DNA of 39,157 bases. Source: Candidatus Xenobia bacterium (lineage in GTDB: Bacteria; Vulcanimicrobiota; Xenobia; Xenobiales; QWHO01). The translations under genes and the position numbers were made by a program. Under the pieces are notes generated by a model. The model did not search any database. It saw only the letters and a program-made list of their open reading frames with translations, and was not told the DNA's origin. Below, piece after piece: positions 4,320-11,264 of this stretch. Location: NCBI GenBank assembly GCA_045863235.1, contig BTUM01000074.1, forward strand, positions 1 through 39,157, given 5' to 3'. Numbering within the stretch: the stretch's first letter is position 1; each line of letters starts with the position of its first letter.

Positions 4320-4514
4320 GTGCCGGTTTGCGGATGGTGCGGAAAGTTCGACAAGAAGGTCGAGACGGTGGACAACGGAGCCACCGTTCTCTACCTCTGT
4401 CCCTTCTGCTATGCCCAGTATGAGCTCAGGGAAGGCAAGGAGCTGACCCCGACCGAGCTGACCCGTCCCCCCAGCCTGGTGGAGCGACTCAAGCGTTGGT
4501 TGTTTCGACACTGA
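4320..4514 (+). CDS. Small zinc-ribbon protein
   Basis: 64 aa with CGWC...CPFC and a basic amphipathic C-terminus. Overlaps the next gene start. Confidence 0.65.
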   Translation: MPVCGWCGKFDKKVETVDNGATVLYLCPFCYAQYELREGKELTPTELTRPPSLVERLKRWLFRH

Positions 4515-5895: not shown

Positions 5896-6642
5896 GTGCG
5901 GGGGATTCTTTTCATTTTCCTTCTCCTTTGCATGCCAGCTCAGGCCGGCGTCGAGCTCGACCAGGCTCTCGACCTGCTCAAGCGGGGCCAGTTCCCCGAG
6001 GCGGTGGTGGCCGCCCAGAAGGCGGTCGCAGCCGAGCCCGGATCGACGCAGGCTCGGCTGACCCTGGCGCAGGCAGCCGAAGCGGCTGGCGATATCCGCC
6101 TGGCAGGCCTGACCTACGCGAAGGCCGTCGAGCTCGAGCCGAGCAATGCAGAGATCAGCCTGGCAGCGGGCGACTTCCTGGTCCGTCAGGGCGAGCTTGC
6201 CATGGCAGACCAGTTCTACATCCTGGCTTTCGAGGCAGCGTCCGACAAGCTGGTGCCTCTCCGTCGCAAGGCCGCGGCTCTGACCGCTCAGGCGGCCATG
6301 GGTCGCAAAGAGGTCGCTGTCGAGTTGCCGATAGCGGCCTGGGAAGCCGTGCTGAAGGACCCGCAGTGCGGCCCCGAGGACTTCTACGGTCTGGCCGATT
6401 GCTGCCTGTTGCCTCCCTACGACACAGCCCGGTTGGACAAGTGCCAGCAGTCGATCGAGCAGGGCCGGGCGCGCTGGCCCGACAGCGGGCTGCTGATGTA
6501 TGCGCTCGCCCGGTTGGATGTCCGCCGATTCAAAAGCGATCAGGCGCTGGCCCATTACAAGAGGGCCGTTCAGCTCGGCCTTCCCGCCCTGGAGAACAGG
6601 TTGGCCATTGAACAAATCAAACTCCTGGAGGCTGCCCGATGA
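5896..6642 (+). CDS. Secreted tetratricopeptide-repeat protein
   Basis: Signal peptide MRGILFIFLLLCMPAQA; TPR patterns such as AQKAVAAEPGSTQARLTLA and YAKAVELEPSNAEISLAAG. Confidence 0.8.
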   Translation: MRGILFIFLLLCMPAQAGVELDQALDLLKRGQFPEAVVAAQKAVAAEPGSTQARLTLAQAAEAAGDIRLAGLTYAKAVELEPSNAEISLAAGDFLVRQGELAMADQFYILAFEAASDKLVPLRRKAAALTAQAAMGRKEVAVELPIAAWEAVLKDPQCGPEDFYGLADCCLLPPYDTARLDKCQQSIEQGRARWPDSGLLMYALARLDVRRFKSDQALAHYKRAVQLGLPALENRLAIEQIKLLEAAR

Positions 6643-7345: not shown

Positions 7346-7720
7346 TCAAATGGAAGCGGTCAGCTCGGCCCAGGTCTTGCCATCCGCCACCCGGTCGCCT
7401 GCCTTGTAGCCCACCCGGGTGAGCAGCACCCGCGTGACGTGCGGAGTATCGTTGTTGAAGGCGAGCACATCGCCGGGCTCGCACTCGAAAGTCTGGCCGG
7501 CCTGCGGACGGAACAACCGCCCCCCCAGATACAATAAGGCCCCGCCGGAGCGAACGAAGCAAATGAAGATGCGCTGCTCCTTGTGGCTGTGGGGCTCGAT
7601 CACCGCTCCCGGCTGAAGCTCGAGCATCTCGACTCGGGTGGTGGCCTCTTCGAGCAGCACGCAGTGCGAGCCGCACTCGGACGGTTGCCAGGACAAATTC
7701 TCGGGCACGATGGCTTTCAT
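7346..7720 (-). CDS. Cupin-domain protein
   Basis: LELQPGAVIEPHSHKEQRIFICFVRSG...CEPGDVLAFNND matches cupin motifs 1 and 2; the second-motif His is absent. Confidence 0.8.
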   Translation of the reverse strand: MKAIVPENLSWQPSECGSHCVLLEEATTRVEMLELQPGAVIEPHSHKEQRIFICFVRSGGALLYLGGRLFRPQAGQTFECEPGDVLAFNNDTPHVTRVLLTRVGYKAGDRVADGKTWAELTASI

Positions 7721-7800
7721 GGCGCGCCCCTTCGCCTTGCGGGGCGGCCCTCCTTCGAGTGGCAGGGTGGCTCGAACGACCGCCGAACGGCCGGCGAATG

Positions 7801-8946
7801 ATGCGAAATTTACGATATCTCCTCCTGCTTGGCTGCGTGCTGCTGACCTGGGGCTGCGGCAACGAAGTCTCCTTCACTCCGGTCGACGGGGCGCTGCCCC
7901 CGGTGGCTCCCAGTTTCATCGACCCCACCGCCGAGCTCGGCGAGCAGGTCCAACTCGGGCGTCAGGTGCTGATCGCTCCCTTCGCCCGCGTCCAGGGCCC
8001 GGTGACGGTGGGCGATCGCAGCAATCTGCAGGATAATGTCATCGTCGAAGGCCAGGTGGCCATCGGCGATCAGGCCATCCTGGCCCACGGTTGCGTGGTG
8101 CGAGGTCCGGCCACCATCGGGGCGGCCGGCGGGGCACCCTGCTTCATCGGCTTCAACGCCCTGGTCGAAGGTGGCGTGGTGGAGCCCGGGGCCATGGTCA
8201 GCATCCTGGCCCGCCTGGGCCCGGGAGTGACCCTGCGCCAGGGAATGCGCATTCTCGAGGGCAAGAACGTGACCACCCAGGCCGAAGCCGACGAGCCCGC
8301 CCTGGGGAAGGTCACCCCCGTGACCGACAACGACCGACACTTCATGGAAGACGTGCTGCAGGTCAACTTCGAGCTGGCCGCCGGCTACGCCGCGATGGAG
8401 GTGGAAGACGCCAACCTGGTGCGGGGCATCGGACCTTCACCGGTGACCTCGCTGCACAACGTGCGCCACTTCCCCACCCTCGAGGGCGTGCCCACCAGCG
8501 ACCCGCTCTTCCCCAACCGCATCATCGGCGAGACGCTGCTCTCGGACACCCTGGTCGAGCTCTTCCAGAAGCTGGGCCGGCGGGTCAGCATCCGATCGGA
8601 CGAGGGCTCCCCCTTCCAGATCGGTCGGCTGGGATCGATGGATTCGGAGGTCACCCTGCATGCGCTGGAGCACAGCTCCATCACGGTGGGCGAGAACTGC
8701 CAGTTGGGCACGCGGGTCGTTCTTCATGGCGGCGAGGACCGGGCCAACGTTCCTCACTCGGTAACCCGCCTGGGGAACAACGTCACCGTGGGAGCGGGGG
8801 CGGTCGTCTTCCGAGCGACCGTCGAGAACGGCTGCACCATCGGGGCCGGGGCCCTGGTGGCCGGCTCGCAGCTGGCTCCCGGCTCGGACATCCCGGCCCG
8901 GACGATCCTGATCGGCAACCAGAACCTCGGCGAGGTGGAGTGGTAG
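7801..8946 (+). CDS. Lipoprotein with two tandem gamma-carbonic anhydrase (Cam-like) left-handed beta-helix domains
   Basis: Lipobox LTWG-C after MRNLRYLLLLGCVL; hexapeptide repeats; Cam-like motifs GDRSNLQDN, LAHG, VLQVNFELAAGY, SIRSDEG, LHALE, VLHG. Start at ATG 7798 or 7801. Confidence 0.8.
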   Translation: MRNLRYLLLLGCVLLTWGCGNEVSFTPVDGALPPVAPSFIDPTAELGEQVQLGRQVLIAPFARVQGPVTVGDRSNLQDNVIVEGQVAIGDQAILAHGCVVRGPATIGAAGGAPCFIGFNALVEGGVVEPGAMVSILARLGPGVTLRQGMRILEGKNVTTQAEADEPALGKVTPVTDNDRHFMEDVLQVNFELAAGYAAMEVEDANLVRGIGPSPVTSLHNVRHFPTLEGVPTSDPLFPNRIIGETLLSDTLVELFQKLGRRVSIRSDEGSPFQIGRLGSMDSEVTLHALEHSSITVGENCQLGTRVVLHGGEDRANVPHSVTRLGNNVTVGAGAVVFRATVENGCTIGAGALVAGSQLAPGSDIPARTILIGNQNLGEVEW

Positions 8947-11264
8947 GTCGGGTCCTCCTGCTCGAAGACGACGCCGCGCTGCGCGAGTCGCTGGCCGAGG
9001 TGCTCGAGGACCAGGGCTATGAGGTGGCCACCGCCGGGGCCGGCGCCCAGGCAGTGGCCATGGCCGCCGAGCAGGGTTTCGACCTGATCGTCACCGACAT
9101 CCGGATGGAGGGCATGAGCGGTCTGGACGCCCTGGAAAAGGTCAAAAAAGACCGTCCCGACATCGGCAGCCTGGTGATCACCGGCTATTCCACCGAGGCC
9201 GACTCGATCCGGGCCCTGCAGCTGGGGGTGGGAGACTACCTCAAGAAGCCCTTCCAGGTGAGCGACTTCCTGCAAGCGGTCGAGGTGCAGATGGCCCGGC
9301 GCCGCGAGGAGCGAAAGCTCGTGCGCCGCGAGCGAGCGCTGCGCAGGACGGCGCTCTGGGCTCTGGAGACGGTGGCCCGCTCGCTGGACATGGCCGGTCC
9401 TCCGGGTCCCCTGGGGGGCCTGGTGGAGGCCGGACGGCTGGCCGCGCGCGCGGCCCTGGCCCTGGGTCTGGGGGAAGCCCAGGCCGAGGAAGCTCAGCTG
9501 GGCTTCCTCATGGCCGCTCTGACCCGCTCCGAGCACGCCAGCCTGCCCGAGTTTCTGACCGCCGGCCTGCCCGAATCGGTGCAGCGCCTGGCCGGCGAGG
9601 TGGAGCTTCGCTACGACGAGCACGGTCAGCGCATCTCCCTGGCGGCCCGGCTGGCCGGCTACCTGCTCAGCCGGGTTCGCGAAGAAGAGCGAGCCGACCC
9701 CGAAGTGGCGGCAGCTGTGGAATCGGCCCTGCAAGGGCCGCTGGCCGAGGAGAGCGACCTGGCCGCCGCTTTGGAGCAGGCCCGCAAGCGGCGCGGGTTG
9801 CTCTCGCTGGGACGGGCCCTGATCAGCGGGGGGGATGCCGCCTCAGCGCGCCAATCCTTTCAGAGCGTGCTCGACCAGGAGCCGCCCGGCAGACCTACCC
9901 GCGAGGGGGTTGAGGCCATGTTGGCGCTGGCTCGTCTGAGCGGCGAGACAAGCCTTTGCCGGGAAGCGGCCAATCGGGCCCGTTCGCTGGCCCCCTCGGC
10001 CCGGGGTCTGAGCCAGTTGGAGGCCGCCCTCACGCTGCTGCGGGCGGGTGACCCGGAGGGGCCAAGCTGGCTGGCCGAGGCGGAAGGGGTGCTGGACTCG
10101 CTCGGACCAAACCCGGGGGCCTCCTGCGCCCACCTGGCCCGCCGACGGCTGGCCGGCACGGCTCGCGCCTCCGAGCTACAGGACGACCTCCGCCTGCTCT
10201 TGCTGCCCGAGCATCTGGACACGCTTTACGAGTCGGCCGGCTGGCTGTTGCCCTGGCTGGTGGAGACCCCTGACTGCCTGCAAGACGCCACAGTCAACCG
10301 GGCCCTGATGCTCCTGGCCCGCGAATGCCCTGGCGCCTGCGCAACCGTGCTGGGCGGCAACCTTTCCCCCACCGGCCGACGCAACCTGGCCGAAGTGCTG
10401 GCTCGCTGCGGCTCGGCTGCGGCCCGCGAGCTGCTCGAGCGTCTGCGAGGGGATGCCGACGAAGAAGTGCGCAGGAGCGCGGCCGAAGGCCTGACCCGAG
10501 AGGAGGAGAGCTCCCTGCCCTTGCTGCGCCTCCACTCTCTGGGCCCCTTCACGGTCTATCTGGGCGAGCGGCGCATCGAGGAGTGGCACTCCCAGAAAGT
10601 GCGCTATCTTCTGGCCTGCCTGGCAGCCCATCCCGGCCGTCCCGTCAGTGAGGACGTGCTGGTGGACGCCTTCTGGCCGGAAGACCCCATCCGGGGCAAG
10701 AACAACCTCTACACCACCAGCTCCAACCTGCGCCGGGCTCTCCGGCACCCGGGCTTCAAAGGCGACCTGAACACCATCCCGCGCACTCCGGCCGGGCTGA
10801 CCCTGAACCCCGACCTGCCCCGCTGGCACGATCTGGAGGAGCTGGAGCGCTGCTGGCGCGAGGCCCAGGCCTCCGCCAAAGACCCCGAGCGACTGCTGCA
10901 GGCCTGGCTCAGCGCCGCCCGTCTCTACCGGGGACCTTACCTGGAGGGCTGCTATCACGAGTGGGCCATGGTCACCCGCAACCGGCTGGAGGTGCGCATG
11001 CAAGAGACCCTGGTCTCGTTGCTGCAAGCCCTGACGGCCCGCGAGCGCTGGTCCGAGGTGCTGGAGTATTCCCAACAACTGCTCGAGCTCGAGCCCTGTT
11101 CGCAAGAGGCCCACCTGGGGGTGATGAAGGCCTACCTGAACCAGGGCCAGCCCGAGCTCGCCCTGCGCCAGTTCGAGACCTGCCGCGTGACCCTCAAGAA
11201 GGAGCTCCAGCTGGATCCCTCGCCGGCCCTGCTCGAGCTGCGCCAGCGCTGTCTGATGGCGTAA
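8940..11264 (+). CDS. Response regulator: REC, eroded HD-GYP-like region, TPR/HEAT, SARP-type wHTH and BTAD
   Basis: Likely GTG start at 8940 overlapping the upstream stop. VLLLEDD...TDIRMEGMSG...KKPF receiver; C-terminal LHSLGPFTV, DAFWPED, LYRGPYLEG, LELEPCSQEAHLGVMKAY...LKKELQLDPSP. Confidence 0.88.
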   Translation: MVGRVLLLEDDAALRESLAEVLEDQGYEVATAGAGAQAVAMAAEQGFDLIVTDIRMEGMSGLDALEKVKKDRPDIGSLVITGYSTEADSIRALQLGVGDYLKKPFQVSDFLQAVEVQMARRREERKLVRRERALRRTALWALETVARSLDMAGPPGPLGGLVEAGRLAARAALALGLGEAQAEEAQLGFLMAALTRSEHASLPEFLTAGLPESVQRLAGEVELRYDEHGQRISLAARLAGYLLSRVREEERADPEVAAAVESALQGPLAEESDLAAALEQARKRRGLLSLGRALISGGDAASARQSFQSVLDQEPPGRPTREGVEAMLALARLSGETSLCREAANRARSLAPSARGLSQLEAALTLLRAGDPEGPSWLAEAEGVLDSLGPNPGASCAHLARRRLAGTARASELQDDLRLLLLPEHLDTLYESAGWLLPWLVETPDCLQDATVNRALMLLARECPGACATVLGGNLSPTGRRNLAEVLARCGSAAARELLERLRGDADEEVRRSAAEGLTREEESSLPLLRLHSLGPFTVYLGERRIEEWHSQKVRYLLACLAAHPGRPVSEDVLVDAFWPEDPIRGKNNLYTTSSNLRRALRHPGFKGDLNTIPRTPAGLTLNPDLPRWHDLEELERCWREAQASAKDPERLLQAWLSAARLYRGPYLEGCYHEWAMVTRNRLEVRMQETLVSLLQALTARERWSEVLEYSQQLLELEPCSQEAHLGVMKAYLNQGQPELALRQFETCRVTLKKELQLDPSPALLELRQRCLMA

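Follow-up and report, generated by a model that had tools for sequence, protein, structure and literature searches.

Can a carbonic anhydrase chain with no complete metal site in either of its two domains still build one between them? The question is raised by a gene on contig BTUM01000074.1 of a Candidatus Xenobia bacterium, within a 39,157-nucleotide stretch (hereafter the window), whose product consists of two domains resembling Cam, the γ-carbonic anhydrase (γ-CA) of Methanosarcina thermophila. Cam has one domain per subunit and assembles into a homotrimer that holds three sites (PDB 1QRF, 1QQ0, 1THJ), whereas the chain studied here has two divergent domains, each with half a site. As described in a passage of PMC4519908, His81 and His122 of one Cam monomer and His117 of its neighbour are the metal ligands, Asn73, Gln75, and Asn202 form a hydrogen-bond network, and Glu62 and Glu84 move the proton. 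Arg59 and Asp61 are bridged within a monomer and Asp76 makes a bridge between monomers (passage in PMC12635333). According to a passage in PMC5746736, Cam is active only when trimeric, and known γ-CAs are trimers.

The features of the locus are listed in Table 1. Tandem ATG codons lie at 7798 and 7801, the former being an alternative start, and the covered parts of the gene contain no indel among near-identical contigs from public runs. A sequence-only reading had proposed that the two domains lost complementary halves of the Cam site, and every motif that it quoted is present in the open reading frame. In domain 1, SNLQD spans residues 74‒78, VIVE 80‒83, LAHG 94‒97, VVRG 99‒102, and QVNF 187‒190; in domain 2, SIRSDEG spans 263‒269, LHALE 286‒290, LGTR 302‒305, and VLHG 307‒310. 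Cam residue numbers were taken from the printed Cam alignment, and the register was fixed by profile alignments. These bear out the proposal for domain 1, in which Asn75, Gln77, Asp78, His96, and Asn189 correspond to Cam Asn73, Gln75, Asp76, His117, and Asn202, and Glu83 and Arg101 stand in place of His81 and His122; the loop from Arg59 to Glu62 is deleted. Arg265, Asp267, Glu268, His287, Glu290, and His309 of domain 2 correspond to Arg59, Asp61, Glu62, His81, Glu84, and His122. The proposed loss of His117 from domain 2 is found (Thr304), but the loss of Asp76 (Ser282 here) is not family-wide, since 55 of 99 homologues have Asp at this position. Domain 2 ends at a conserved VEW before a C-terminal helix would begin, and Cam's long acidic loop is missing from it. 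The linker between the domains corresponds by homology to the N-terminal arm found in Cam-type domains.

Table 1 Features of the γ-CA-type locus, in window coordinates.
Feature	Position	Strand	Basis or remark
Two-domain γ-carbonic-anhydrase-type lipoprotein gene	7801..8946	+	381 aa; sequence and Cam matches
Lipoprotein-type signal peptide ending at Cys19 (TWG-C, non-canonical lipobox)	7801..7857	+	Sequence; G-Cys of homologues
Domain 1 (about aa 36‒202), left-handed β-helix and C-terminal helix	7906..8406	+	
His96 (Cam His117), predicted metal ligand, domain 1	8086..8088	+	Cam match, alignments
Domain 2 (about aa 208‒381), Cam-type N-terminal arm and β-helix without C-terminal helix	8422..8943	+	
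His287 (Cam His81), predicted metal ligand, domain 2	8659..8661	+	Alignments
His309 (Cam His122), predicted metal ligand, domain 2	8725..8727	+	Alignments
Divergent cupin gene	7346..7720	-	Kept beside the enzyme gene in closest relatives only
REC / Trans_reg_C / BTAD (SARP-type) regulator	8940..11264	+	Pfam; neighbour, not a conserved part

Neither domain has all three metal-binding His residues. The full set occurs once per chain, as do the equivalents of the Arg59/Asp61/Asp76 bridge and of Asn73, Gln75, Asn202, Glu62, and Glu84, all divided between the domains. Domain 1 supplies the His117 face (Asn75, Gln77, Asp78, His96, and Asn189), and domain 2 supplies the His81/His122 face (Arg265, Asp267, Glu268, His287, Glu290, and His309). 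In Cam, Asn73, Gln75, and Asn202 probably lie on the subunit that gives His117, judging from the β-helix register.

Alignment of each half to Cam, the check that the sequence-only reading had suggested, confirmed that both are of Cam type with complementary residues. In the PDB, both halves find Cam and CcmM: Cam is the best match of the N-terminal half, and CcmM is the best sequence match of the C-terminal half (E = 5e-11). Profile alignment relates the halves to intact Cam-type repeats with probabilities of 99.8% and 99.6%, and to each other with 98.3%. Pfam finds only hexapeptide repeats in the enzyme reading frame. The protein has the left-handed β-helix with a C-terminal helix that characterizes Cam-type γ-CAs, and its scores lie below the curated NCBIfam cut-offs for carb_anhyd (NF040597; 89.1 bits against 380) and CcmM (NF053794; 94.2 bits against 550). 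Since no subunit carries the full His set of Cam and the NCBIfam cut-offs are not reached, the protein is Cam-like but is set apart as a variant outside the Cam equivalog. The AlphaFold2 model is confident over all 381 residues (pLDDT 93.6, pTM 0.88), and the Atlas models of three homologue clusters superpose across both domains (TM 0.79‒0.88). No PDB chain among the matches listed spans both domains, the best TM by query being 0.39.

CcmM is trimeric. It is also carboxysomal, whereas the genome studied here has no Rubisco match, and its N-terminal γ-CA domain (PDB 3KWC, 7O4Z) has the R-x-DEG motif in common with domain 2. The γ-CA heterotrimer of plant mitochondrial complex I (CA1/CA2/CAL2) offers the nearest logic described, also one of complementary losses: only one of its three interfaces keeps all three His residues and binds Zn, and the activity of that site is described as unproven (passages in PMC7447434). 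However, the plant assembly consists of three separate subunits in a full ring on complex I, whereas here a single exported chain of two domains leaves the third position empty. A "putative acetyltransferase" of Desulfovibrio desulfuricans G20 (PDB 3C8V) aligns poorly over the whole chain (rmsd 12.3 Å, TM 0.20) and is absent from the 60 best sequence matches to the family profile. Since its helix-bearing domain is probably C-terminal and that of the present family is N-terminal, 3C8V is likely a separate fusion. In the open-access literature searched, we found no description of a two-domain split-site γ-CA.

A word-indexed search recovered 66 homologues, and among representatives clustered at 50% identity, 242 matched in a profile search with E no higher than 1e-30. 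GTDB genomes were scanned as well and yielded 66 loci, which belong to Vulcanimicrobiota, Armatimonadota, Gemmatimonadota, Planctomycetota, Pseudomonadota, Actinomycetota, Cyanobacteriota, Bacteroidota, and Bacillota; the family thus spans at least nine phyla. Its distribution is patchy, with a match in 6 of 60 relatives of the source genome, one of the six being partial only. The nearest named relative, from a Vulcanimicrobiota genome, is 57% identical, and its gene likewise lies near a cupin and a TldD gene, in keeping with a probable host in that phylum.

Conservation of the complementary split, which the sequence-only reading had proposed to check, holds across this large family. In 64 aligned proteins, Asp78, Arg265, and Asp267 are invariant, and His96, His287, and His309 are present in 46, 47, and 46, respectively. 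Residues of the representatives were analysed in the best 150 of the 242, where 103 are near full length and 63 of these have all three His residues. After removal of rows more than 80% identical, 141 full-length rows were left, of which 94 carry three His residues, 36 carry none, 10 have a single one, and 1 has two. A different architecture, with a triple repeat, accounts for two of the 94 and for the sole two-His row; these aside, no three-His row has both reciprocal His residues in domain 1, and an isolated His at a vacated position occurs in five rows. Gln77 is found in 92, Asp78 in 97, Asn189 in 97, Glu268 in 97, and Glu290 in 72 of 99 non-redundant three-His rows.

The surfaces of the two domains show a reciprocal pattern of conservation in these 99 rows, outward positions having been assigned manually on the hexapeptide register instead of on coordinates. 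On the His117 side, mean column entropy is 1.02 bits in domain 1 and 2.82 bits in domain 2; on the His81/His122 side, it is 2.84 bits in domain 1 and 1.07 bits in domain 2. Outer-face controls gave 3.10 bits (domain 1) and 3.30 bits (domain 2). The kept face of each domain is therefore conserved, and the vacated face, which is polar as well, varies almost like the outer surface. Variability so close to that of solvent-exposed surface favours a single interface, that of domain 1 with domain 2, and speaks against a ring or a conserved third subunit. Coevolution, judged from the alignments, lends weak support to the same interface. With 199 rows, the kept-face pairs Lys155‒Glu380, His96‒His287, Phe61‒Ala288, and Phe118‒Leu289 rank high, and positions 155 and 380 form a Lys-Glu pair in 101 of 141 rows; most of the high-ranking kept-face pairs fall once the His-less rows are removed. 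In the three-His rows, 14 of 750 kept-face pairs exceed z = 3 against a background of 0.84%, as do 3 of 396 vacated-face pairs, and the top inter-domain pairs are mostly noise.

The conserved split, the variable vacated faces, and the pTM of the model together support a single predicted metal site between the domains, which we regard as highly probable. We propose that a Cam-type chain was duplicated and that its halves kept opposite faces of the subunit interface, so that the protein would fold like a Cam trimer lacking one third, its one predicted site lying where its own two domains meet. His96 of domain 1 and His287 and His309 of domain 2 would bind Zn or Fe. Arg265 would bridge Asp267 and Asp78, as Arg59 of Cam does Asp61 and the neighbour's Asp76; Asn75, Gln77, and Asn189 would orient the metal-bound water, and Glu268 and Glu290 may pass the proton. 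With the faces for a third subunit left free, no trimer would be needed, and the enzyme is likely a monomeric, lipid-anchored CO2/bicarbonate hydratase outside the cytoplasm. The whole of this reading, a monomeric, active, and exported carbonic anhydrase, seems probable to us, with some reserve.

A substantial minority of the family lacks the triad. In a 62-row tree, built by a quick method with five fragmentary or frameshifted loci excluded, 18 His-less and 6 one-His rows fall on one Planctomycete branch. In the GTDB scan, loci L039‒L066 except L061 are from Planctomycetota, mostly Isosphaeraceae, and have lost two or all three metal His residues together with the second-shell residues, but kept the Arg/Asp/Asp bridge and the export leader. 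A Planctomycete-type leader pattern occurs in 32 of the 47 non-triad rows, which retain Asp78 in 43, Arg265 in 42, and Asp267 in 46. This clade is likely a pseudo-enzyme, as far as its residues indicate. The joint loss of His across both domains fits a single shared site, with few independent events behind it since most of the losses come from this one clade.

Fusions of the two-domain module also occur, with chemoreceptors and with FG-GAP, Ig, and DUF4214 domains, as would be expected of a unit that is complete in itself. It forms the N-terminus of the methyl-accepting chemotaxis proteins P0155, which keeps the three His residues, and P0209, which has lost two (4HB, HAMP, and MCP domains), and P0197, a partial fusion, shows the 4HB domain only. 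Other architectures were seen besides. P0156, P0138, and P0205 are single chains with an N-terminal hydrophobic leader and three tandem Cam-type repeats; every repeat of the first two has all its His residues, so that each chain is a covalent pseudo-trimer, and P0205 is degenerate. In Atlas clusters, SulP sulfate/bicarbonate permeases, mostly of Myxococcota, are fused to γ-CA-like domains.

The sequence-only reading had also described the protein as lipid-anchored. A G-Cys pair is found at the corresponding position in all 13 of a hand-picked set of close homologues that includes the query, and the window protein is likely exported and lipid-anchored. The anchor is predicted for its clade only; other members use other export signals, and distant ones have other leaders. 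By a crude test, the N-terminus is hydrophobic or of Planctomycete type in 72 of the 94 three-His rows and neither in 22; some of the latter are truncated, and others may be cytoplasmic. The source genome (97.6% complete) contains five β-CA matches and one ordinary single-domain γ-CA-like reading frame, read by eye, and neither an α-CA nor a Rubisco match was found in it. From this complement of carbonic anhydrases and the missing Rubisco match, the role would be pH buffering or CO2/bicarbonate exchange in the periplasm, not carbon fixation. Replacement of a periplasmic α-CA was considered and found no support, as α-CA occurs in 2 of 10 carrier genomes and 1 of 14 controls.

The overlap of the enzyme stop codon with the start of the REC-SARP gene, pointed out by the sequence-only reading, is real (GTG at 8940, TAG at 8944‒8946, 7 nt), but the link that it implied finds no support. 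Such a regulator lies 3′ of the enzyme gene in only one of nine related loci examined, a 98%-identical copy from the same genus. The nine include two that match weakly or in part and one that ends 118 bp past the gene. Since the codons for the C-terminal VEW and the stop yield the same overlapping GTG before the partner gene (below) in many other loci, the overlap in the window looks incidental, judging from these sequences. The source genome has nine matches to regulators of this kind. No promoter consensus was found. Contigs from RNA libraries cover the region thinly and evenly, and one spans the junction between the divergent cupin gene and the enzyme gene; this coverage gives no evidence of transcription, as DNA carry-over is possible. 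Elsewhere in the window, minus-strand flagellar genes (FlgJ-like, flgG, flgF, FlhB-like, and FliK-like, read from translations) occupy 407‒4124 and are followed by a PmbA/TldD gene at 4496‒5815, an order also seen in locus L001. The gene at 6639‒7277 (+) encodes a 212-residue protein that is rich in Ala, begins with a signal-like segment, and is rich in Gly and Cys towards its C-terminus; it has no Pfam match and was not seen in the related loci searched.

In one subclade, a second gene accompanies the enzyme. A gene for an exported protein of about 170 residues, nearly always with a lipoprotein-type Cys, adjoins the enzyme gene at 31 of 66 GTDB loci, several of the partner-less loci being too short to judge. 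It lies directly downstream in 29, often overlapping the enzyme stop codon, and upstream in 2. The partnered loci form one branch over five phyla, within which one long-branch Paenibacillus row has no partner gene. A scan with a single partner sequence gave nothing, and a closer alignment used as the query instead found 30 metagenome loci with the partner; of 26 with at least 300 bp upstream, 25 have the enzyme gene, once in pieces on the opposite strand. The partner is found almost only beside a two-domain γ-CA gene (L011:7189‒7695, the 30 other GTDB loci, and most of L075‒L104) and has invariant W, W, EG, and A-x-G. Its 86 homologues are all hypothetical or unnamed save one named "fibronectin type III", and no Pfam or NCBIfam family matches it. 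The confident model is mainly β-strand, and the FN3-like label comes from its Atlas neighbours (TM 0.56‒0.60) and that one UniRef name. At the position of Cam Gln118, which is Arg305 in the window protein (codon 8713‒8715), 17 of 22 rows without a partner gene have His; neither the partnered clade nor the window protein does.

The same split site might be active but completed between chains, in a domain-swapped dimer or a larger ring, or with a further protein in the third slot, which in one subclade may be the FN3-like lipoprotein. The trimeric state of the known γ-CAs (as stated in PMC5746736) and the dedicated exported partner gene of one subclade speak for such assemblies. On the other hand, the vacated faces are variable and polar, and the model of the single chain is confident. 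We looked for docking of the partner on a vacated face and found no clear extra conservation there in the partner subclade. Moreover, the best match to the partner in the source genome (E = 0.004) extends over short stretches only and does not convince, and four other partner-less carrier genomes likewise gave no convincing homologue. We consider completion by other chains unlikely.

It is also conceivable that the metal site forms without making an efficient hydratase, and that the protein is a bicarbonate/CO2 or metal sensor, a scaffold, or an enzyme for a related substrate such as COS. The chemoreceptor fusions point this way, as do the five β-CA matches already in the genome and the His-less clade, whose retained fold and Arg/Asp/Asp bridge imply a non-catalytic use for the scaffold. 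Even a full triad does not guarantee good activity, since thermostable γ-CAs that have one reach only 3‒10 WAU/mg (passage in PMC12635333). The missing acidic loop of domain 2 also counts against the proposed hydratase. However, the second-shell residues are kept where the His residues are kept and decay without them, to 15 of 47 rows for Gln77, 16 for Asn189, and 15 for Glu268, and a non-hydratase role appears rather improbable to us. A hexapeptide-repeat acyltransferase or an inert structural β-helix, with a coincidental His pattern, is more remote still. Automatic names for the family include "acetyltransferase", and there are weak matches to NeuD, LpxA, and GlmU models, all far under their cut-offs; but Cam and CcmM match best in both sequence and fold, with LpxA, GlmU, and NeuD ranking lower in fold searches, and Cam-specific residues are conserved in an exactly complementary manner. 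We therefore retain the monomeric, exported carbonic anhydrase as the preferred reading. Its wider form, in which a γ-CA active without a trimer serves as a portable module that is lipid-anchored, secreted, fused to chemoreceptors as a CO2/pH input, partnered with an FN3-like protein, or reduced to a metal-free pseudo-enzyme in Planctomycetes, is tentative, its probability slightly short of even in our judgement.

Since γ-CAs have been described as active only as trimers (passage in PMC5746736), a single-chain form would matter. If the proposal is true, it would show that the interfacial site works with two β-helices and one site per chain, and the two halves of the Cam site could be mutated asymmetrically, unlike in the homotrimer. 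The His-less clade, the partnered clade, and the chemoreceptor fusions are natural controls within the family. For surface display and CO2 capture, a secreted monomeric γ-CA would make an appealing scaffold. The members, at present annotated as "acetyltransferase" or "hypothetical", would then represent an unrecognised class of exported carbonic anhydrases in bacteria of soil, rock, and sludge.
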